This document shows, in pieces, positions 3,645-58,117 of a stretch of 58,117 nt of DNA. Position numbers and translations under genes: made by a program. Position 1 is the first letter of the stretch; the number at the start of each line of letters is the position of its first letter. The DNA is taken from the NCBI GenBank assembly GCA_030693325.1, contig JAUYAV010000005.1, positions 1-58,117 on the forward strand, read 5' to 3'. This stretch comes from a bacterium (lineage in GTDB: Bacteria; Patescibacteriota; Minisyncoccia; UBA6257; MFKM01). The notes under the pieces were generated by a model. That model was given only the letters and a program-made list of their open reading frames with translations. It was not told where the DNA came from and searched no databases.

Positions 3645-4106
3645 TGTTGGCAAGCTATAAGCCGGATTCTGTATTTGGTGATAATTTATCTGGGCTTTCA
3701 ATTACTTGAAAGCTCTAGCAGCACCCTCCGACTTTCGTCAGAGTACGACTTTGCACCCGATAAGGATTTAGCCGTTTCACTCTTCGACTTCATTCAGAGC
3801 AAGCCCTGAACTATTTCGAAGATTAACCCCGAAGGGTCTTCTGGTCCTTTCGAACCAGAACGTCACTGCTCGCACCTCTAAGCTTGCGCTCGGCGGCCGT
3901 TAGCCGCTATCTTCTACTAGGTGTCCGGACTTTCCTCTATCGCCACTGCTCCGCAGTGGCACGCTGATTTATGCCGATTTAAGCTGATTTATGCGGATAC
4001 TTTTTTATCAGCATTTATCAGCGGCTCCGACGATAGTCGGAGTATCAGCATTAATCCGCATGTCATTGCGAAGCAATGACGACAGCTATCACCTGGCTTA
4101 CCAGCA
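3645..4106 (-). ncRNA. rnpB: RNase P RNA (bacterial type A-like) with expanded P3 region
   Basis: The minus strand reads GAGGAAAGTCCGGAC (3923..3937) and ACAGAATCCGGCTTAT (3657..3672). P1 can form between 4096..4103 and 3648..3656. P2 is GGTGATA/TATCACC between 4087..4093 and 3677..3683. End coordinates are approximate. Confidence 0.85.
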
Positions 4107-4111
4107 GTTTC

Positions 4112-4139
4112 AGAATACAAAATTTACCGTAGTTGTCAA
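4112..4139 (-). promoter_or_regulatory. Candidate sigma70-type promoter for rnpB
   Basis: Minus strand TTGACA (4134..4139), a 16-nt spacer, then TATTCT (4112..4117). This places a start a few nt upstream of the proposed P1 5' strand. Confidence 0.4.
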
Positions 4140-4186
4140 TAAAATGATTTTGAGAATTGAGATAGGTTATAATTATAGTTTGGGAA

Positions 4187-5020
4187 ATGATAAACAATAA
4201 AGAAATCATCCAGGTCAAAAATCTTGTCAGGAATTTTGGAAAAATAAAAGCCGTTGACGGAATTTCTTTCTCAGTGAAGGAAGGGGAGTTTTTTGGGTTT
4301 CTCGGCCCTAATGGAGCCGGCAAGACAACCACGATGAGAATTATCTGCACTTTATTGGCGCCGACTTCCGGTCAGGTAAAAATCAACGGCTATGATGTGG
4401 TTAAAAATCCGGATGGCGTAAGGCGTTCCATTGGAATGGTTTTCCAGGAAGAAAGTTTGGATGAAAAATTGACGGCTTGGGAAAATTTAAAATTTCACGC
4501 TATTTTATATGATATTCCTTCCAGCCAGCAATCTTCCCGAATAATTGAGGTTTTGGAAATGGCTGGATTAGTCGGCCGTAAAGACGATTTGGTAAACACT
4601 TTTTCCGGGGGAATGAAAAGGCGGTTGGAAATCGCCCGTGGACTGCTTCATCGGCCGCGAGTTTTATTTTTGGACGAGCCAACTATGGGTTTGGATCCCC
4701 AGACCCGCCGGCATATCTGGGATTATATTCAGGATTTAAGAATCAAGGAATCTATCACCGTTTTTCTGACGACTCATTACATGGACGAAGCGGAGTTAGT
4801 TGATCGGGTGGGAATAATTGATAACGGCAAAATCATCGCTTTGGACACAGTCGCTAATCTTAAAAAACAGGTTGGCGGCGTTTCAAACCATTTAACCTTA
4901 GATGATGTTTTTTTGGCTTTAACCGGTTGGCAGATTCGCGAAGAAGCCGCCAGCGACAAGGACAGAATGGGCCGGGAAAACCGCCAGCGGAAAAGCTTAA
5001 ATAATAACCATAAAAATTAA
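4187..5020 (+). CDS. ABC transporter ATP-binding protein (ABC-2/DrrA-like)
   Basis: Walker A GPNGAGKTT, signature FSGGMKRRL, Walker B VLFLDEPT and H-loop TTHYMDEA. Confidence 0.92.
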   Translation: MINNKEIIQVKNLVRNFGKIKAVDGISFSVKEGEFFGFLGPNGAGKTTTMRIICTLLAPTSGQVKINGYDVVKNPDGVRRSIGMVFQEESLDEKLTAWENLKFHAILYDIPSSQQSSRIIEVLEMAGLVGRKDDLVNTFSGGMKRRLEIARGLLHRPRVLFLDEPTMGLDPQTRRHIWDYIQDLRIKESITVFLTTHYMDEAELVDRVGIIDNGKIIALDTVANLKKQVGGVSNHLTLDDVFLALTGWQIREEAASDKDRMGRENRQRKSLNNNHKN

Positions 5021-49618: not shown

Positions 49619-50305
49619 ATGAAATCACGCTATCATCATTTAAAGCCGAGAATAATTGCCCTTCGTAAATCAGGCAAAACATATACCGAGATATGTAAAA
49701 TTATTGGCATAAATATTTCGAAAGGCACTTTATCTGACTGGTGCGGCAGTATTTCGCTATCCCCTGAACAGCAGCAAAGAGTCGAACGTTCAATCAAAAG
49801 AGGCACAAAAAAGGGGCAAGCAGTCGCATTGGTTGTTAATAAGCTGAAAAGAGAAAAGTATATCCAAGCCATAAGAGATAGAGTGAATCATCTTCCCGAT
49901 AAGTTAAAAGATGAAAATACTTCAAAAATTGCGCTTGCAATGTTGTACTTAGGAGAGGGATCGAAAACCAAGAGGGGATCTTTAATGTTCGGCAATTCAG
50001 ATCCATTGGTTATACGTTTATTTTTGGGCTTGTTGAGATACTGTTACGATATCAACGAAAATAAATTTCGTTGTACGCTTCAATGCAGAGCTGACCAAGA
50101 TATTAAAAAACTGGAAAAATTTTGGTCCAATATTACAAAAATTCCGTTTTCGCAATTTTATAAAGCAAGGATTGATCCGAGAACCATAGGAAAACGATCA
50201 AAGAAAAAAGATTATAAAGGCGTTTGTAGAATAGATTATTTTTCTGCGGATATTTTTAATGAGCTTCAAATTATTATTGAAATTATTGGTAATATAGAAT
50301 TTTAA
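49619..50305 (+). CDS. HTH plus LAGLIDADG-like homing-endonuclease-like protein
   Basis: N-terminal resolvase-type HTH (RKSGKTYTEICKIIGINISKGTLSDWC). Central IALAMLYLGEGSKTKRGSLMFGNSDPLVIRLFLGLL resembles single-motif LAGLIDADG proteins, judged by eye. Confidence 0.5.
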   Translation: MKSRYHHLKPRIIALRKSGKTYTEICKIIGINISKGTLSDWCGSISLSPEQQQRVERSIKRGTKKGQAVALVVNKLKREKYIQAIRDRVNHLPDKLKDENTSKIALAMLYLGEGSKTKRGSLMFGNSDPLVIRLFLGLLRYCYDINENKFRCTLQCRADQDIKKLEKFWSNITKIPFSQFYKARIDPRTIGKRSKKKDYKGVCRIDYFSADIFNELQIIIEIIGNIEF

Positions 50306-51888
50306 TCGGGCCTATAGTTTAATGGTAAAATAAGTCGATGGCATCGACTAGTTGGGAGTTCGATTCTCCCTAGGTCCACTAATTGAGATTTATCACCGGC
50401 AAAATGCTGATTTAACTCGTAAATATAGCCTAATTTGGCGGTTCCAAATCCTTCATTTCGTCTGTAAGGAATTCCCTCCGGAAATATCAGCTTTTGGAAC
50501 TTTGATTGCAGGGGTGGCGCCAAATCAAACCACTGCCGGCCGAGATTGCGAATAAAACTGGTTGCGTAGACTAAGGCAGCTTCAATATCAAATTGTTCTA
50601 TTTTCGCTTCGCTTGAAGAAATTTTGACAGCGGCGACTTCGTTTTCTACCTCTTCTTTCCGTTCAATAAACTCGTCTTTGGTATAAGAGCCGTCCTCGCG
50701 CATCTCGCAGATGCGTTTTTTCTTTGCCTCGAGGAGTTTTAATTGTTTGGCATATTTCTCGGCTTCAAGTTCAAAAATTCGCCCTTTTTCCTGCCATAAA
50801 TCGAGGACAGTTTCTTTAAATACCTTGAGAAATTTCTCTTTCGGCGTAACCTGTTCGAGATAAACCAAAAACTCCTTTTCAAGATCAAGCTTATGAATGC
50901 CTTTGCCGAACATTGAGCATTCTTTGTTTTGGCAGTGGTAATAATAATATTTTCCACCATTACCCCGGGGAGCGCTGCCGGTAAGGGGTCTTGAGCAATC
51001 AGCGCACAGTACCGTCCTTCTGAGCGGGAAGTGGGGATTATATTTATTATGTTTCACTGTCCTTGTCTTGCCCGAACGAACCAGCATAATCTGATACATT
51101 TCATCCTTTGTGATCATGGGGCTGTGAAGTCCGTTTACGTCTTCACCGGTCCACGGATTGAAGATGATTCCCGCGTAGAATTTCAGATACTTTCCCAAAA
51201 TCCTATCTACTAATTGCGGGGTGCTTTTGGTCCCCCGGATATCTTTAAGGCCCCATTGATCCATCATCCGGGCCAGCTCAACCTGCGAGTACAGCCCCTT
51301 TGCGAACTCTTTAAGGGCTTTTTGGATAATCGGGAAAATCTGCTCGTCCGGCGGATCGGGCTGAGTTTTTTTCTCGCCTCGTTTTTTGAAATGGGAACAC
51401 TTATAGCCGAGAGGCTGTCTCCAGGGAAAGATTCCCTGGTTTATTCTTGTGAGCATTCCATCGCTGCATCTTTGTTTTCGGATGGCGTTATCATATTCGG
51501 CTGCCCCGGCCAGCACGGTTTCGATGAATTTTTCCGCCGGCTTGTTGCCGATGGGTTCGGTTACCGAGTGGAGGGTGGTGCCGTAATCCAGGAGAATTTT
51601 GCGGACGGCGAAATGGTCTTCGGTGTTGCGGGCGAACCTGTCAACTCGCAGGACAATAAAGGCCTGGATTTGTTTTTTGTTCTTTCGGCAGAACTCCAGC
51701 GCTTCCAGGAATTTTTTTCTGTTATTCAAACTCAAGTCCTTGGCGCTTTCGCCTTCTTCCCGGAAAAGGGCCACGATTTCAAGGCCTTTCTGCTCGCAGT
51801 ATTTGCGGCAGAGTTCCTCCTGAAATTCGAGGGAGGTTCCTTTGACCTGCTCATCGCTTGATACTCTTGTATAGATAATACCTTTCAT
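50302..51888 (-). CDS. Large serine recombinase (integrase)
   Basis: MKGIIYTRVSSDEQ catalytic-serine motif, a resolvase domain, a recombinase domain and the zinc ribbon CADCSRPLTG...YYYYHCQNKEC, then a coiled-coil-like C-terminus. An alternative upstream ATG lies at 51936. The last about 25 codons are antisense to tRNA-Ala. Confidence 0.88.
   Translation of the reverse strand: MKGIIYTRVSSDEQVKGTSLEFQEELCRKYCEQKGLEIVALFREEGESAKDLSLNNRKKFLEALEFCRKNKKQIQAFIVLRVDRFARNTEDHFAVRKILLDYGTTLHSVTEPIGNKPAEKFIETVLAGAAEYDNAIRKQRCSDGMLTRINQGIFPWRQPLGYKCSHFKKRGEKKTQPDPPDEQIFPIIQKALKEFAKGLYSQVELARMMDQWGLKDIRGTKSTPQLVDRILGKYLKFYAGIIFNPWTGEDVNGLHSPMITKDEMYQIMLVRSGKTRTVKHNKYNPHFPLRRTVLCADCSRPLTGSAPRGNGGKYYYYHCQNKECSMFGKGIHKLDLEKEFLVYLEQVTPKEKFLKVFKETVLDLWQEKGRIFELEAEKYAKQLKLLEAKKKRICEMREDGSYTKDEFIERKEEVENEVAAVKISSSEAKIEQFDIEAALVYATSFIRNLGRQWFDLAPPLQSKFQKLIFPEGIPYRRNEGFGTAKLGYIYELNQHFAGDKSQLVDLGRIELPTSRCHRLILPLNYRPD
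50308..50378 (+). tRNA. tRNA-Ala (anticodon GGC) with G3:U70
   Basis: GGGCCTA TA GTTT AATGGTA AAAT A AGTCG ATGGCAT CGACT AGTT GGGAG TTCGATT CTCCC TAGGTCC A. Confidence 0.9.
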
Positions 51889-51919
51889 AATCCTGTTTAT
51901 GCTTAATCGCGAGGACACA

Positions 51920-52174
51920 TTAGCGTTCTTGTCCATTAAAGTAAAGTCGCGGATTTCGCTTCTTTTTGCGGCATTCCGGGGGCATGTTTGCGGATTCTGT
52001 CTCGTTTAAAGGCGGGCGCTTAAGATCGTTTAATTTATCTGTTCTTTTTTCCTCTTGCCATTTTCCAAAGATAATCTCGGCGAGCAGATAAAATCCATCC
52101 CTGATTTCCTGGATTTCTTTATCCGAGAGGGTGGGGTCGTTTAACAGCTCTTTTGTGCGTTCAAGACTAAGCAT
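51920..52174 (-). CDS. Hypothetical protein
   Basis: 84-aa ORF packed between the RuvC-like and recombinase genes. No motif recognised. Confidence 0.45.
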   Translation of the reverse strand: MLSLERTKELLNDPTLSDKEIQEIRDGFYLLAEIIFGKWQEEKRTDKLNDLKRPPLNETESANMPPECRKKKRNPRLYFNGQER

Positions 52175-52175
52175 T

Positions 52176-52790
52176 TTATTTTCGCCTGGTTTTTAAATAA
52201 CAGATCCCCAGCCCCACGGCGTCAAACATGTGGCTCCAGTACTTTTCTCTAATTTTTCCAAGTCTCTGTTTATTTTTCCGCTTATCCTGGCTTAACATGA
52301 TTTCTAATTTCGCGTGGTCTGATTTTGGATCCTGATTCAGATGGTTTTTTAATTCCGGATAATCGGATTTTTGATCCTCTTCCAGGCGGTTTTTTAGTTC
52401 CGGATAGATGGACGCAGCCAGCTTTGCCACGTCCTTCTTGGCGGCCCTGTCGTTTCCGCAGATTATTTTTCTTACGGCCAGCGGCGAAAACTCACAGACT
52501 TTTATTCTTTCCTTCCCGGCCAGAAACTTGATCTCATTGATTATCGCTTCCAGTAATTTTGATTGCCTGGTCAAGGAAAAGATGGATCTTTCTATCGCCA
52601 GAACGTCCGGAGCATAATCCTCAATCAAAGAGGAAAATACTTTTCTGATTTCTTTCAGCCTTTTTTCGCGGGAACCTTTCAAGTTCAAGATTTTTACCAG
52701 AGAGATGATGAGCTCTTCGCCCTGGAAAACGGCTATTCCCTGAAAGTGGGTACCCGGGTCAATCGCAATTATTTTCTCCTCCTTTTTCAT
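52176..52790 (-). CDS. RuvC-like Holliday junction resolvase-fold nuclease with an internal tandem repeat
   Basis: IIAIDPGTHFQGIAV (first Asp), VLAIERSIF (Glu) and C-terminal HMFDAVGLG follow the RuvC D-E-D/H-D order. The tandem 15-aa repeat is YPELKNRLEEDQKSD / YPELKNHLNQDPKSD. Confidence 0.65.
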   Translation of the reverse strand: MKKEEKIIAIDPGTHFQGIAVFQGEELIISLVKILNLKGSREKRLKEIRKVFSSLIEDYAPDVLAIERSIFSLTRQSKLLEAIINEIKFLAGKERIKVCEFSPLAVRKIICGNDRAAKKDVAKLAASIYPELKNRLEEDQKSDYPELKNHLNQDPKSDHAKLEIMLSQDKRKNKQRLGKIREKYWSHMFDAVGLGICYLKTRRK

Positions 52791-53136
52791 ATTTTTGAAC
52801 TAGATAATTAAACAACGCGCCTTTCGACTTTTTTATTTTGCTTGCAGGAATCTCCTTTACTTGGCTGTAGATTTTTCTCAGGACGCTTCCCGGATATTTC
52901 CGGCAGACCGAAAGATAAAATCCCAGACTCGCCTTATCGTTTAATCCTTCGGCCAAATCTCTGGCTAAAAGTTCTTCTTTCGTTAAAGTGAAGGAATTTG
53001 ATTCGTTATCGTTAGTATCGATACGAACGATATTATTATTTTTATTATCGTTATGATCGTTTCGATTATCGTTATCGATACTATCGTTACGATCGTTAGG
53101 TGCGCTGTTCATGTTTTTTATTTTCGGCTTGGACAA
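52759..53136 (-). CDS. Hypothetical protein with an Asn/Asp-rich N-terminus and a possible winged-helix C-terminus
   Basis: 125 aa. The N-terminal 45 aa are low-complexity N/D. The C-terminal ELLARDLAEGLNDKASLGFYLSVCRKYPGSVLRKIYSQVKEIP looks DNA-binding, which is a weak call. Confidence 0.5.
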   Translation of the reverse strand: MSKPKIKNMNSAPNDRNDSIDNDNRNDHNDNKNNNIVRIDTNDNESNSFTLTKEELLARDLAEGLNDKASLGFYLSVCRKYPGSVLRKIYSQVKEIPASKIKKSKGALFNYLVQKYEKGGENNCD

Positions 53137-53154: not shown

Positions 53155-53454
53155 TTATCGCAAAACATTCGTGTTTTGGCGTTTTGGGCCAAGCAGCTTC
53201 ATTCTTTCCCCGATTTTTTCCTGCCATTCCTGCCGGTAATCGAGAAAAACGTCCTCGACCGTTCTCCGGGTGACGACGGCCAGCCCGATGGCGTTATAAA
53301 TGCCGGGTTCTTTTTCGCCCCTTTCCCATTTGGAAATCTGGGAATGATCCATTCCCATGAGAAAAGCCGCTTCTTTCTGGCTGAGATTTATCGCCTTCCG
53401 GCAATTGTGAATCCTGTTTCTTATTCTCGGTTTTCTTTTTGACTGATTTTTCAT
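53155..53454 (-). CDS. XRE-family helix-turn-helix transcriptional regulator
   Basis: INLSQKEAAFLMGMDHSQISKWERGEKEP is a classic HTH_XRE pattern. Confidence 0.85.
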   Translation of the reverse strand: MKNQSKRKPRIRNRIHNCRKAINLSQKEAAFLMGMDHSQISKWERGEKEPGIYNAIGLAVVTRRTVEDVFLDYRQEWQEKIGERMKLLGPKRQNTNVLR

Positions 53455-53644: not shown

Positions 53645-53679
53645 TACTTTTGAGCCTAACAACCGGCGCCAGATTAATA

Positions 53680-53737
53680 AATAAAGTAAAATTTGAACTT
53701 TCGGACACGTGTCCTGAAAGCCGAATTTTACTTTATT
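53680..53737. promoter_or_regulatory. 58-bp imperfect palindrome in the divergent control region (candidate operator)
   Basis: AATAAAGTAAAATT...GGACAC|GTGTCC...AATTTTACTTTATT: 14-nt perfect outer arms and a 12-nt perfect core, with mismatched segments between them. Confidence 0.5.
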
Positions 53738-53942
53738 GATGATGGGTTGCTTTAGTTTTTTAATTAGACCGGAACCTTAAAAACTTAAAAGGGGGTGATA
53801 AGAATGTTTTAATGGTCGGAGGCCCATGACCAGAGGGACTGGGAAATAGCGGAAAGCCTGGCCGATTTTTTATCAGCCAGGCTTGTCTGAATAACAACAC
53901 AAAACGGGAGTTTTGTCAACAGACAGGAAAGGGGTGAGCAAG

Positions 53943-54179
53943 ATGAACTTGAATGAACTGGGCAATAGAAAAGCGATGATCACCATCGCCGGTGAGGAAG
54001 TGGAGGTCAACGCCTCTGACTCCGTGAAGGACGCCTTAAAGCGAATCCTTCAGGAAAAAGGCATTGATTCTTTTACCATCCTGGTTGACGGTAAAGAGGT
54101 TACCGCGACCGAAGATCTGCCGCAGGCGTTTTCCGGACATGTAATTGAAGTGGAAAGATACGTCAAGGCGGGAAGATAA
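53943..54179 (+). CDS. Ubiquitin-like (ThiS/MoaD-type beta-grasp) protein, 78 aa, C-terminus ...YVKAGR
   Basis: The size and pattern MITIAGEEVEV...DALKRIL...ILVDGKEV...GHVIEVERYVKAG-R parallel ThiS/MoaD proteins, which end in GG. GGGGTGAG precedes the ATG at 53943. First gene of an operon with E2-, E1- and JAB-like genes. Confidence 0.6.
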   Translation: MNLNELGNRKAMITIAGEEVEVNASDSVKDALKRILQEKGIDSFTILVDGKEVTATEDLPQAFSGHVIEVERYVKAGR

Positions 54180-54254
54180 CGAACCGGAGGCAGGCAAAGG
54201 GGGTTTTAACACTCTCCTTGCCTGCCTTCTTTCTTGAGAAGGGAAGGAGAAAAG

Positions 54255-54842
54255 ATGATTGATACAAAGCTTATAGACCGGGCAAAGGAAAAATCAAAGG
54301 TCATCGCTGAAATAGATTCTTCCTGGCGAAAGTTCGTGGGCCTTTTGAAAGAAAATACCTTTGCCGTGCCTTTCAAGGCTGACTACGCGGCGTTGGTAAA
54401 GGATGGTTGTTTTTTGGTTGAGGGATACAGCGGCCCGCTTTTCGTGGATAAGCTCTGTTGCAAAGGCAAGGCCTACCAGCTCAAAAAGCCGGTTGCGTAT
54501 TATCCTTTCAGGATATACGGGGTCTATGACTCGGGGAGAAATTTCCAGAGATTTGTGGCCGCGCCGGAAATGGGTTTTCACTACCTTGGGCTAAGCAACG
54601 AGGGACACGGTATCTGCACCGGGGACATCCAGTACGTAAACCCGGATTCCCTGCCTGCTTTGAAAGAAGTTTGTTTAAAGATTGCCAGGGCATTCCGGGT
54701 GATTAACCTTGAGTCATTGGGCACGGTTTTCCTGCCCGAGGAATACGCTTCCTTAAGAAACATCCTTTCGGACAAAGACACGGACTCAAAGATAAAGTTG
54801 GAGAAATTGCTTTCGGAGAATCTGATTGCAGAAATACTTTAA
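54255..54842 (+). CDS. E2 (UBC)-like protein candidate
   Basis: 195 aa. The segment YPFRIYGVYD...FHYLGLSNEGHGICTGD resembles the UBC active-site flap (HPN...G.IC). GGAAGGAG precedes the ATG. The call rests on position between the Ubl and E1 genes and is not proven. Confidence 0.5.
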   Translation: MIDTKLIDRAKEKSKVIAEIDSSWRKFVGLLKENTFAVPFKADYAALVKDGCFLVEGYSGPLFVDKLCCKGKAYQLKKPVAYYPFRIYGVYDSGRNFQRFVAAPEMGFHYLGLSNEGHGICTGDIQYVNPDSLPALKEVCLKIARAFRVINLESLGTVFLPEEYASLRNILSDKDTDSKIKLEKLLSENLIAEIL

Positions 54843-54857
54843 GGAGGTGATTTATTT

Positions 54858-55799
54858 ATGTTGGGAAACGCGCTTTATGAAAGGCAGAACCTGATAGCGG
54901 ATCTGGATATCCCCGAGGTTGCCACAGTCATCGGCGTAGGCGGCACGGGTTTTTGGACGGCCGTCTTCCTGGCGATGTCAGGGGTTGAGGAAATAATCCT
55001 GGTGGATAAGGATATGGTTGAGGCTTCTAACTTGAACCGCCTGCCGCTGAAGGATTCGCTTATCGGGGTGAAGAAAATAAACGCGGCCAGCGATTTCATC
55101 AGCCAGATACGCAGTCCGGTAAGAATCGAGGCCCATGACCTGCGCATTGAAAAGCCGCAGGACTGTACTGTCTTGAGGGGGATGGTTTTCTGCTGCACGG
55201 ATAATTTAAAGAGCCAGCAGATTGTCTGCGCTTATTGCAAGAAAAACAAAATTCCCTACCAGAGGATAGGTTATGACGGAACAATCTTGAACGTTTCAAA
55301 AACATTCCCTCTTTCCTTCAAGGAAGAGGTTGGGGAAACTGGTTATAGCGTTACCCCGTCCTGGGTTATTCCCGCGGTTTTTGCCGCGGCAGCCGGGGTA
55401 TCCTCAAAGCTCTACAAAGAGCTCTGCCTGATGGATGATATCGGCAAAATCAATATTCAGAACTCTTCGTTTGTTGCCGAGGGGATCCTTGATGAGGCGA
55501 GGGAAGAGGAAAAAGAAAATATTATTGAGAATATCCATGAATACATACCGGACAGCTACGGCTGTTGCGAGGACTGCAATCGTGTTGATCCTGACAACGG
55601 CGATTACGGCTATTGCCCTGATTGCGAAGAACGTTACAACGAAGATGATTTGAAAGAGATAAAAGAAAAAGCGCGCAATGAGGAATATGACCGGATAATT
55701 GAGCAGATTGAAACGGGAGAAATCAGCGATGCAAAACTCATAGCAGCCATTAAAAAATGGTGTGAGCAAAAGGAGGATACAGAGAATGTTAGAAAATGA
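54858..55799 (+). CDS. ThiF/MoeB/E1-family adenylyltransferase (ubiquitin-activating-enzyme-like)
   Basis: Rossmann motif VIGVGGTGFWTAVFLAMSG, VDKDMVEASNLNRL and VFCCTDN, then the zinc-type pair CCEDC...CPDC and an acidic helical tail. A strong AAGGAGG RBS precedes the start. Confidence 0.85.
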   Translation: MLGNALYERQNLIADLDIPEVATVIGVGGTGFWTAVFLAMSGVEEIILVDKDMVEASNLNRLPLKDSLIGVKKINAASDFISQIRSPVRIEAHDLRIEKPQDCTVLRGMVFCCTDNLKSQQIVCAYCKKNKIPYQRIGYDGTILNVSKTFPLSFKEEVGETGYSVTPSWVIPAVFAAAAGVSSKLYKELCLMDDIGKINIQNSSFVAEGILDEAREEEKENIIENIHEYIPDSYGCCEDCNRVDPDNGDYGYCPDCEERYNEDDLKEIKEKARNEEYDRIIEQIETGEISDAKLIAAIKKWCEQKEDTENVRK

Positions 55800-56580
55800 T
55801 CTTCTCAAGAGAAGTAATATTCTGGAAGTAAAGATAAAAAATTACGGCGAATGCGGCTTTTGCAGCGATTTGGATAATCAGGAAACCTTAAAAATTCCCT
55901 GGGATATCTGGAGTCAGTGGCTGCATCTCAGCCAATGCTTGGGTAGCAAGGAATGGGGAGCGGTATTCTGGATAAAGGATAATTCCGTTACGCGCTTTAA
56001 GATACCCAGGCAGGAGGTTAGCTCGACTGACTGCGAATTCAAGGAAGAGTTAGGCGGTGACGGCATAGTGCATTCGCACCACGACATGGGGGCGTTTCAT
56101 TCAACTCAGGATGACCGCCACGCAAGAAATCTCTATGCCTACAGCATCGTTCTTTCAAACGCAAAAGGCTACGAGGCGACTAAAAGGATAAAACTGCCCT
56201 GCGCCGGTTTTGGCTATGTCAGGGTGGAACTGCGACTGGTCGATCTTCCGGATGTTGAGCTTTCAAAGATAACCGAAAGGCCGATCATTGAAGCTTACAT
56301 TCCGGCAGAGACACAGGATGAATCTCCCTGCGAAAAATGCGCCACCGGTGATTGCGGAAACTGTAAGCTTACGGACGTAGCCCGGCTGCCCTGCGATAAC
56401 TGCGTAAGCCTCAAGTGCAAGGAATGCCAGTTTACCTTTGCCGACACGGTTGATATGTTTCCCTTTTGCAGCTTGTGCGAGGATGGATTATGTAACCAAT
56501 GCGACAGGCTCGCCAAGTATTTGGAGAACTATCCGGATGACAAAAAATGCTTTGAGCATCTTCTTGTTGGCAAAACCTAA
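55786..56580 (+). CDS. JAB/JAMM (MPN+) metallopeptidase with a C-terminal six-CxxC zinc-ribbon-like extension
   Basis: Exact JAMM spacing H-x-H-x7-S-x2-D in VHSHHDMGAFHSTQD (56071..56112). AGGAGG lies 8 nt before the ATG at 55786. Overlaps the E1 gene by 14 nt. The C-terminus has CEKC, CGNC, CDNC, CKEC, CSLC and CNQC. Confidence 0.85.
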   Translation: MLENDLLKRSNILEVKIKNYGECGFCSDLDNQETLKIPWDIWSQWLHLSQCLGSKEWGAVFWIKDNSVTRFKIPRQEVSSTDCEFKEELGGDGIVHSHHDMGAFHSTQDDRHARNLYAYSIVLSNAKGYEATKRIKLPCAGFGYVRVELRLVDLPDVELSKITERPIIEAYIPAETQDESPCEKCATGDCGNCKLTDVARLPCDNCVSLKCKECQFTFADTVDMFPFCSLCEDGLCNQCDRLAKYLENYPDDKKCFEHLLVGKT

Positions 56581-56603: not shown

Positions 56604-56930
56604 ATGTGGAATAAGCCAGGCCCTGAAGAGCTTGCAAAAATTCCGGTCATGTACTCAACCGAAAGCGTGTCCTTAAAGGAAAAGATGATTCACATGCACT
56701 TCTTTTTGGGAGGATGCGACTGGTATGCGGCTGAGTACGATTCTGAAAGCCGGATATTTTTTGGCTTTGCCATACTCAACGACGATCTGGAGATGGCGGA
56801 ATGGGGATACTTTTCTTTGCAGGAATTGTGCGATCTGAAAGTAGGGTTCCTCGAGGTGGACAGGGATTTGCATTTTGAACCGAGAAAAGCGATGGAAATA
56901 GAAAGAATCAGACAGGCGGAAAGGAGGTAA
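56604..56930 (+). CDS. DUF2958-like protein
   Basis: MHFFLGGCDWYAAEYDSESRIFFGFAILNDDLEMAEWGYFSLQELCDL matches my recollection of the DUF2958 family common on plasmids and ICEs. AGGAGG precedes the ATG at 56604; an alternative ATG lies at 56583. Confidence 0.65.
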   Translation: MWNKPGPEELAKIPVMYSTESVSLKEKMIHMHFFLGGCDWYAAEYDSESRIFFGFAILNDDLEMAEWGYFSLQELCDLKVGFLEVDRDLHFEPRKAMEIERIRQAERR

Positions 56931-57000: not shown

Positions 57001-57345
57001 ATGCGTATCTTAGCTAACTACGGATGCAAAACCAACGGCGAGAGTTATTCGGTAACCTTTGAGACCATGGGCGATGTCAGCAAGGAAAAGGCGGAGTCAA
57101 CCATTGATGAACTCTTCGGCTTGGCCAAAGAGGCAGTCAAAAGGCAAATTGAAGGCAAAGTCCCGGGTCCGAAACAAGAAAATTCCCAGGAACCGCAGCC
57201 AAAGAATCCTGACGCGCCGGCCAGCAAGAAACAGGTAAACCTCATTATCAAACTGGCCAAGGAGAAAGGGAAATTTATTGAAAATCCTAGCGCCTTAACC
57301 ATGACTGAGGCCAGCCAGACCATTGAAGAACTGATGGCGGTGTAG
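57001..57345 (+). CDS. Hypothetical protein (114 aa)
   Basis: A strong AAGGAGG RBS. Last gene before the operon terminator. The C-terminal APASKKQVNLIIKLAKEKG...LTMTEASQTIEELM looks like a helical module. No firm family call. Confidence 0.55.
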   Translation: MRILANYGCKTNGESYSVTFETMGDVSKEKAESTIDELFGLAKEAVKRQIEGKVPGPKQENSQEPQPKNPDAPASKKQVNLIIKLAKEKGKFIENPSALTMTEASQTIEELMAV

Positions 57346-57414: not shown

Positions 57415-57456
57415 GGGAGTCAGTGATTAAATTCATTGACTCCCATTTTTAATTTT
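57415..57456 (+). terminator. Strong rho-independent terminator ending the Ubl/E2/E1/JAB operon
   Basis: GGGAGTCAGTGA-loop-TCATTGACTCCC followed by ATTTTTAATTTT. Confidence 0.8.
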
Positions 57457-57982: not shown

Positions 57983-58117
57983 ATGGCAAAACAAATAACC
58001 TGTGAAGAATTCACCAAATATGTATGGTTTTACCTGGAAGGAAAGCTGGATTTCATTCGAGAGAAAAGGTTTGATCAGCATAAGAAAGCCTGCTCGAAAT
58101 GCAACGAGTTAAGTTCT
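57983..58117 (+). CDS. Possible zf-HC2 anti-sigma-factor-like protein, 3' end cut by the window edge
   Basis: AAGGAG lies 7 nt before the ATG. MAKQITCEEFTKYVWFYLEGKLDFIREKRFDQHKKACSKCNE fits the C-x(n)-YL.G.L-x(n)-H-x3-C-x2-C pattern. Open to the window end. Confidence 0.45.
   Translation, partial: MAKQITCEEFTKYVWFYLEGKLDFIREKRFDQHKKACSKCNELSS

Follow-up and report, generated by a model that had tools for sequence, protein, structure and literature searches.

We propose that four consecutive forward-strand genes on contig JAUYAV010000005.1, of which positions 1 to 58,117 form the window analyzed here, encode a self-contained and reversible ubiquitin-like (Ubl) conjugation module carried by mobile elements, a reading to which we assign a probability of about 0.62. 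The cassette consists of a 78-residue Ubl protein (53943..54179), a 195-residue cysteine-containing protein that occupies the position of an E2 conjugating enzyme and is the candidate Ubl carrier (54255..54842; hereafter gene 2), a 313-residue single-domain adenylating enzyme of the ThiF/MoeB type (E1; 54858..55799) and a 264-residue JAMM/JAB metallopeptidase (JAB; 55786..56580). Within ~2.7 kb, it would therefore be a minimal and complete set of Ubl, E1, candidate E2 and deconjugating peptidase. The original prediction, made from the DNA without database searches, had proposed Ubl-conjugation machinery encoded on a mobile island, and this proposal is largely supported, with modifications to the parts that concern the E2, the kinship to known systems and the host.

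The AlphaFold2 (AF2) model of the Ubl protein, built with 27 homologs, has a mean predicted local distance difference test score (pLDDT) of 82 and the element order bb-a-bb-b, and the top 50 matches listed by Foldseek against the Protein Data Bank (PDB) are all beta-grasp/ubiquitin-like proteins or fusions to Ubl or SUMO tags, mostly ubiquitin, SUMO, NEDD8, FAT10, ISG15, MoaD and ThiS, with probabilities of 0.92-1.0 and TM-scores of about 0.5. From this model we are confident that the protein adopts a ubiquitin-like beta-grasp fold. It falls in no Pfam Ubl family; DUF348, RBD, Fer2_4 and ubiquitin were matched only below threshold, and ThiS gave no match. In the Ubl alignment the motif RYVKAG is invariant and ends at Gly77, which is followed here by one more residue, Arg78. 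Among 175 distinct Ubl sequences, Gly77 is the last residue in 83, while one to three variable residues lie beyond it in the other 92 (78 have Cys, 6 have Arg, and the remaining tails are M, VAR, G, Y, LV or KD); the Ubl of the viral contig L095 carries a four-residue tail, NVLR, after the Gly. The pattern is kept where gene 2 is only ~23% identical and also in L095. Read at the sequence level, such a terminus is the classical signature of a modifier, with a putatively reactive C-terminal Gly from which a tail would be trimmed off. The AF2 element order, the Foldseek matches and the invariant Gly77 thus agree with the earlier proposal of a 78-residue beta-grasp candidate, and its C-terminal Gly looks functional. 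As a separate observation, nearly half of the Ubl genes encode a single extra residue after the Gly that is almost always Cys, and this Gly-Cys end recalls the CysO-Cys adduct cut by the JAMM enzyme Mec+.

The E1 carries the motifs GVGGTG (residues 26-31), DKDMVEASNLNRL (50-62) and CTDN (113-116) as well as CxxC pairs at 237/240 and 253/256, and matches Pfam ThiF over residues 23-134 (1.6e-23). Invariant in its family are GxGGTG, the nucleotide-binding residues N58, R61 and D115, Cys190 and the C-terminal CxxC-x12-CxxC; the C-terminus comprises this CxxC...CxxC zinc ribbon and an acidic helical tail, and searches of Pfam and NCBIfam found no rhodanese domain. Profile matches in the PDB were TcdA, PaaA, UBA5, MccB, ThiF and MoeB together with Citrobacter BubCD (8e-7), and the matches listed contained no chain of the bacterial ISG15-like (Bil) systems or of Cap2 from CBASS (antiphage signaling based on cyclic oligonucleotides). 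The JAB matches Pfam Prok-JAB (1e-6; 29.1 bits against a cut-off of 25) and has HxHx7Sx2D at residues 96-109; Glu56, His96, His98, Ser106 and Asp109 are invariant in 23 JAB sequences, so that the JAMM active site is complete. Further Cys motifs are an N-terminal CxxC and three conserved CxxCx4CxxC units that make up a C-terminal domain, with 14 conserved cysteines in all. A JAMM peptidase with a Cys-rich extension is what had been claimed, and the motifs named for E1, gene 2 and JAB were all located.

These two enzymes, together with the Ubl terminus, bear on a reading in which the cassette would be part of a sulfur-carrier or small-molecule pathway, either ThiS/MoaD/CysO-like, with a thiocarboxylated Ubl and the JAB acting like Mec+ on Ubl-Cys, or MccB/PaaA-like, with modification of the C-terminus. 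We regard this as very improbable. The best sequence matches of the E1 are indeed MoeB, ThiF, TcdA, PaaA and MccB, but its scores against the best NCBIfam models UbaA, MoeB and ThiF are 56-64 bits where the cut-offs are 159-450, and it lies 4-8 times below all the biosynthetic equivalog cut-offs. Triads of Ubl, JAB and E1 are known in sulfur assimilation (Iyer 2006, PMC1779556), but no rhodanese, ThiG, ThiH, MoaE, CysM or sulfurtransferase was found in any cassette neighborhood examined, and no thiamine or molybdopterin biosynthesis genes were seen near the cassette, as the original prediction had noted; the E1 is thus of the non-biosynthetic ThiF type that had been proposed. While Cys follows the Gly in 78 of the 175 Ubl sequences, the tail is variable rather than fixed, the extra Cys-protein and the Zn-rich JAB are strictly linked to the Ubl and the E1, and the setting is that of mobile elements or phages.

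We call gene 2 a candidate E2 because of its position, chemistry and topology rather than any demonstrated homology. Its motif HGICTG occupies residues 118-123, and Cys121 is the sole invariant residue over 60 sequences, down to 18-20% identity; His109, Pro79 and Ser154 are near-invariant. His109 lies twelve residues upstream of Cys121, compared with a His-Cys spacing of 10 in UBE2D2, and its local motif is FHYLG, not HPN. In the AF2 model (pLDDT, 82; predicted TM-score, 0.71), a helix at residues 4-32 is followed by four main strands at 44-103, two of which form an 18-20-residue hairpin, a short strand at 107-109, a low-confidence, flexible loop at 112-125 that contains Cys121, and helices at 133-146, 162-171 and 178-187. 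The predicted order of secondary-structure elements is the same as in UBC/E2 enzymes. The family is a tight one, with about 144 clusters when grouped at 90% identity. A search of 1.84 billion representatives with the profile of our A1 alignment returned only 99 clusters at 50% identity, none of which has a match in Pfam or NCBIfam or bridges to a known E2 family, and a broader profile (A3) returned the same close family. Distant members have varied N-terminal extensions consisting of other small domains, among which we sought a Ubl-E2 fusion and found none. Gene 2 thus represents a Cys-protein family of ~100 clusters with no relative in Pfam, NCBIfam or the PDB, and the module, which had been called unexpected in its setting, is not an isolated case. 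The representative search also returned P0306, a protein of 2954 residues in which ~10 stretches match residues 123-181 of gene 2; judging from these matches, the two may share a repeated helical sub-domain.

The cassette recurs as a unit. Drawing on GTDB genomes, JGI metagenomes and look-ups of contigs, we collected 91 related loci, and wherever the contig reaches far enough, gene 2 is accompanied by the Ubl (76 of 76), the E1 (60 of 60) and the JAB (45 of 47). The order Ubl-gene 2-E1-JAB is constant, even where gene 2 is only ~23% identical, and such linkage exceeds what chance would give. Mobile elements and phage-like contigs of Omnitrophota account for almost all of the related cassettes: eight of the 13 GTDB loci bear the label Candidatus Omnitrophota or Omnitrophica, the named NCBI homologs likewise, and the 90%-identity cluster of the E1 includes MDP2940108.1 from an Omnitrophota metagenome-assembled genome (MAG). 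The remark that the cassette sits in a reduced genome of the candidate phyla radiation (CPR) type was not confirmed; the MAGs that carry related cassettes are mostly labelled Candidatus Omnitrophota, not CPR, and the host probably belongs to the former.

Three backbones carry the cassette. In the first ('type A'), a winged helix-turn-helix (HTH)-like protein, a 194-residue protein, a HerA/DUF87-like ATPase and DUF2958 precede the cassette, and SpoVG, small genes and a tyrosine integrase follow it; in the second, which occupies a conserved chromosomal site beside pilin-like genes, SpoVG precedes the cassette, and small genes, DUF6876 and an excisionase-like HTH protein follow it; the third, that of the window, has a serine recombinase, RuvC and an XRE repressor. 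The closest cassette (L018, 87% identity) is in the first backbone while that of the window is in the third, from which we conclude that the module moves between backbones. The host flanks are ~90% identical between genomes whereas the cassette proteins are 70 to 98% identical, with discordant patterns; for example, L052 and L077 (with L011 also compared to L077) share 94% identity in the JAB and 98% in SpoVG, but only 73% in gene 2 and 75% in the E1. Such discordance points to recombination within the module and to fast divergence. The phage-like contigs carry more distant relatives; among these contigs, L092 encodes a phage exonuclease (5e-38) and phrog_18490, and L095 (IMG/VR UViG 3300037062_000005) has a terminase small-subunit match and a full cassette. 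Searches of GenBank phages and PLSDB plasmids with tblastn returned no match to the JAB or gene 2 and generic ThiF matches only to the E1, among them a Legionella ThiS/YcaO/TfuA cluster and a Mesorhizobium Bub operon, both of which were kept as references.

Two further features accompany related loci. A SpoVG-like gene adjoins the cassette, 5' of the Ubl or 3' of the JAB, in 34 of the 41 loci of at least 6 kb (for example, at 9336-9638 in L011), and its product could be a partner, a regulator or a target of the cassette. In L095, a second, diverged gene 2 paralog (4073-4693; hmmsearch, 1e-33) in which the His and the Cys are kept lies ~1.3 kb upstream of the full cassette.

We suggest that the module works in five steps. 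First, the 78-residue protein would be made as a precursor from which the JAMM peptidase trims the residues past Gly77 (here, Arg78), an activity suggested by the variable tail of 0-4 residues and by the action of the JAB in the Bub, Bil and CBASS systems. Second, the homodimer-type ThiF E1, in which the ATP-binding motifs are intact, would adenylate Gly77, possibly followed by formation of a thioester on Cys190. Third, the Ubl would be passed to Cys121 of the 195-residue protein. Fourth, because no E3 ligase is encoded, the lysine to be modified on the target might be selected by the fast-diverging 195-residue protein itself or else by the Zn-rich tails of the JAB or the E1. Fifth, the JAMM peptidase would also reverse conjugation.

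Several observations weigh against this model, most of them at the E2 step. Gene 2 has no match in Pfam (Prok-E2, UQ_con), NCBIfam, PADLOC or PHROG or in the PDB-profile search, and 59 diverse relatives likewise have none in Pfam or NCBIfam. Aligned by hhalign to four eukaryotic E2s (approximate sequences) and one Bub E2, it reached a probability of ~1%, and the best Foldseek match in the PDB has an E-value of 0.5, with TM-scores of 0.25-0.33, despite the confident model. Because no profile or fold search links gene 2 significantly to UBC/E2 proteins or to another known family, we use "E2" here as an inference from context. Beyond gene 2, the profile of the JAB family matches no solved structure (E up to 1), the Ubl ends in Ala-Gly rather than Gly-Gly, and the cassette itself served to gather the loci, which makes its universality in these elements a matter of construction. 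Neither a target nor an E3 or effector was identifiable, and the case for a role in defense is purely one of analogy.

The first group of these observations would also be explained if the 195-residue protein were not an E2 at all, and conjugation were carried out by the E1 without one, as in archaeal SAMPylation and urmylation, with the Cys-protein serving as substrate or adaptor or being an unrelated enzyme, for instance a His/Cys thiol peptidase. Consistent with such a scheme, the confident AF2 model has no significant neighbor among the solved E2s, no profile connects the protein to any E2 family, its best BFVD matches are uncharacterized phage proteins of ~400 residues, and the distant members carry varied N-terminal domains. 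We nevertheless consider it unlikely because gene 2 lies between the Ubl and the E1 in every locus, Cys121 is the single invariant residue with His109 before it as in HPN...C, the order of secondary-structure elements fits UBC, and E2s are enriched among the weak Foldseek matches, where they account for 12 of the top 50 and reach the highest TM-scores, none of them significant. Only the element order, the His-x11-Cys pair and the position in the operon speak for the E2 role implied by the earlier description of a 195-residue UBC-like protein, to which profile and fold searches give no significant backing. If gene 2 is an E2, the case could show how far an E2 can diverge and yet function.

The original prediction had also drawn a parallel to the Bil systems and to Cap2/Cap3 of CBASS, which holds as an analogy but not as membership, given that their defining features fail here; membership in Bub, PRTRC/class 6d and sulfur-carrier systems was considered and rejected on the same ground. 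PADLOC, the 2.0 release of which presumably contains Bil models, matched the Rossmann half of the E1 with Cap2-type E1-E2 models (best, 8.9e-12) and nothing in the Ubl, gene 2 or the JAB. Class 6d is, we assume, the PRTRC cassette of TIGRFAMs. With system definitions taken from PMC11601596, bioRxiv 10.1101/2024.11.21.623966 and PMC1779556, it is this class of Iyer, Burroughs and Aravind 2006, a standalone Ubl with an E2-like protein, an E1-like protein and a JAB that is often found on mobile elements (PMC1779556), to which our cassette is closest in composition. Both keep four components in separate genes (a small beta-grasp protein bearing a C-terminal Gly, an E2-like protein that contains Cys, a rhodanese-free E1 and a JAB), and both are associated with mobile elements. 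PRTRC_A is the sole NCBIfam model matched by the JAB (E 1.8e-4), and the E1 weakly matches PRTRC_ThiF (E 0.045), but both cut-offs are missed (21.1 versus 101.8 bits and 13.1 versus 144.75 bits, respectively), and PRTRC_B, PRTRC_C and Pfam Prok-E2 and Prok_Ub match none of the cassette proteins. Moreover, class 6d proteins have a conserved His downstream of the Cys (PMC1779556) whereas here the conserved His (His109) is upstream and none is conserved downstream; the class has an alpha-helical partner and a ParB homolog (PMC1779556), neither of which is among the conserved neighbors here; and its JAB has a JAB-N domain, whereas ours has Zn-ribbon modules. A DUF2958-bearing plasmid that we examined contained no PRTRC.

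With the Bil systems of Types I and II (BilABCD), the cassette shares separate genes for Ubl, E2 (here a candidate), JAB and E1, a thioester-based chemistry (here a predicted one), the single beta-grasp domain of most Type II Ubls, and the lack of an encoded E3, for which reason the Bil E2 is thought to pick the target. It differs in that its 313-residue E1 has only one ThiF domain (23-134) and fails the definition of a Bil E1 (PMC11601596) and in the order Ubl-E2-E1-JAB; the PDB matches listed include no Bil structure. In the Bub (6E/DUF6527) systems, the JAB matures the Ubl by cutting right after a conserved Gly, as we propose here, but these systems form Ser/Tyr oxyesters with an E2 that has no Cys (PMC11601596), whereas Cys121 is invariant here, they contain Ubl-E2, JAB-E1 or E2-E1 fusions (PMC11601596) in place of four separate genes, and they include the DUF6527 serine protease, which is not among the neighbors scanned here. 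Type II CBASS follows the same logic of E1, E2 and JAB with Cap2 and Cap3; its E2-E1 fusion, CD-NTase and effector are absent from the window, and no fusion or CD-NTase occurs in the 41 long loci, whereas our cassette has a true beta-grasp Ubl and the E2 part of the Cap2 models finds no match in gene 2. Finally, archaeal SAMP/UbaA/JAMM systems and ThiS/MoaD-ThiF/MoeB systems resemble the cassette in their JAMM partner, in a small E1 of the homodimer type and in a beta-grasp protein bearing a C-terminal Gly; in contrast to them, the cassette lacks sulfur-transfer partners, has an extra strictly linked Cys-protein and is located on mobile elements.

The role of the module is less certain than its biochemistry. 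Most likely, it would have a conflict function for the element that carries it, tagging proteins of competing phages or of the host, as in Bil; this suggestion is based on its carriage by mobile elements and phage-like contigs, its mosaicism, and the fast evolution of the presumptive specificity factor. The same biochemistry could instead serve the element's or phage's own program, with host or element proteins, such as the SpoVG-like nucleic-acid-binding protein, being tagged on induction for takeover, counter-defense or control of excision and replication, an alternative that we consider somewhat unlikely as a whole. It would account for an operon that faces a cI-like repressor over a palindromic control region, as an early operon does, and that makes up about half of a ~7.3-kb island without other cargo, for the 'type A' elements, in which the cassette has the HerA-like ATPase on one side and the integrase on the other, all transcribed in one direction, for the presence of SpoVG next to the cassette in most long loci, and for relatives among early-type genes of phage-like contigs. 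DUF2958 and DUF6876, moreover, are typical leading-region genes of plasmids or integrative and conjugative elements (ICEs). It sits less well with several loci that have no nearby recombinase and share one conserved chromosomal site, a hint that the host has retained them, or with the absence of SpoVG from the window. Between the two roles for the conjugation module, we slightly favor Bil-like action against competing phages; induction of the element or host takeover is nearly as plausible because of the repressor-facing operon and the SpoVG linkage.

It is tempting to speculate further that the cassette is a new, unclassified sixth family of prokaryotic ubiquitination-like systems, in which the E2 step is performed by a protein that matches no solved fold, that is, by a non-canonical or extremely diverged thioester carrier, and that the pathway is owned by Omnitrophota phages and miniature integrative elements and would be used by them for tagging proteins of the host or of rival phages; this proposal is a tentative one, and we hold it to be more doubtful than not. 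If it were true, the pathway would be a weapon of mobile elements and not a host immune system. Protein conjugation by CBASS Cap2/3, Bil and Bub was reportedly shown only recently, and each new bacterial ubiquitination-like family has revealed unexpected chemistry or targets. To our knowledge, class 6d/PRTRC cassettes have never been characterized, although they are widespread on plasmids and ICEs. The present cassette is carried by mobile elements and phage-like contigs from a phylum that is poorly understood and whose bacteria are often ultra-small, and the identity of the target could show what mobile elements gain from a ubiquitin-like tagging system of their own.

The cassette is part of an operon of six forward-strand genes, each of which is preceded by a GGAG-type Shine-Dalgarno site, with a single strong intrinsic terminator at the end (57415..57454; a 12-bp stem followed by a T run). 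The Ubl gene starts at the ATG at 53943; the start initially listed, 53913, is an upstream TTG. The JAB most likely starts at the ATG at 55786, which has AGGAGG 8 nt upstream, rather than at the GTG at 55762. As described originally, the four cassette genes are consecutive and have strong Shine-Dalgarno sites, but the overlap that had been noted is restricted to E1 and JAB (14 nt), and the Ubl gene and gene 2 are separated by 75 nt. The two co-transcribed genes that had been reported after the JAB are indeed present before the terminator: one encodes a DUF2958 protein (56604..56930, forward; Pfam, 1e-7), which adjoins the cassette in 14 of the 91 loci and has homologs on plasmids, and the other a 114-residue protein (57001..57345, forward; AGGAGG site) with no significant family match in Pfam or NCBIfam.

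The 75-nt gap holds a GC-rich hairpin directly past the Ubl stop codon (54187..54228, forward strand), identified by repeat search and folding. Folded one by one and compared with shuffled sequences, all 67 distinct Ubl-gene 2 spacers of related loci form such a hairpin, with a mean minimum free energy of -27 kcal/mol, a mean z-score of -6.5 and a median uninterrupted stem of 13 bp, while 48 different stem sequences occur among them. RNAalifold gave no consensus for these spacers because the hairpins are out of register when aligned, and tRNAs were the sole known RNAs matched by Rfam. The hairpin looks like a conserved intra-operon attenuator or leaky terminator, or an RNA stabilizer. Either would cause the Ubl transcript to exceed that of the enzymes, and an excess of Ubl over enzymes would fit a consumable tag.

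The setting of the operon is the mobile island that had been described, with a tRNA-Ala, a large serine recombinase, a RuvC-like gene and an XRE repressor. With the tRNA-Ala and recombinase on its left and an open reading frame (ORF) starting at 57983 on its right, the island is about 7.3 kb long. That ORF matches Pfam zf-HC2, is anti-sigma-factor-like, runs off the contig end (57983..58117) and probably represents the first gene of the host beyond the island on this side. The left edge is marked by the tRNA-Ala (50308..50379, forward; ARAGORN, Rfam), inside the 3' end of the ORF of the large serine recombinase, the island integrase (50302..51936, reverse; Pfam Resolvase, 8e-26; Zn_ribbon_recom; PHROG integrase, 1.5e-63). 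This ORF spans the whole opposite-strand tRNA, so that its final ~25 codons are the tRNA complement, an arrangement that suggests an attachment site at or within the 3' end of the recombinase; a search of the window turned up no attR repeat of the tRNA. Also on the reverse strand are a RuvC-like Holliday-junction resolvase (52176..52790; Pfam RuvC, 7.8e-13, with NCBIfam and PHROG matches) and the XRE/cI-like HTH repressor (53155..53454; Pfam HTH_3, 1.3e-11; PHROG transcriptional repressor), which is transcribed away from the Ubl operon. The divergent control region between the repressor and the operon contains a 64-nt palindrome (53677..53740; two 32-nt arms, 78% complementary) that could be an operator or a terminator, possibly a bidirectional one. 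A 125-residue ORF with a long Asn/Asp-rich low-complexity stretch (52759..53136) lies inside the island, and a 228-residue ORF with no family match (49619..50305) lies between a tRNA-Val and the tRNA-Ala.

Finally, we note that in some related loci a direct repeat of ~330 nt, 81-98% identical between copies, brackets SpoVG, Ubl, gene 2, E1, JAB and one small gene (L006, 9048-9370 and 12906-13233; L011, 9041-9356 and 12891-13193). The repeat matches no Rfam family; it holds a TTGACA box, a Shine-Dalgarno site, an ATG and the first codons MSQVK, and it could be a duplicated promoter/leader or a recombination scar.

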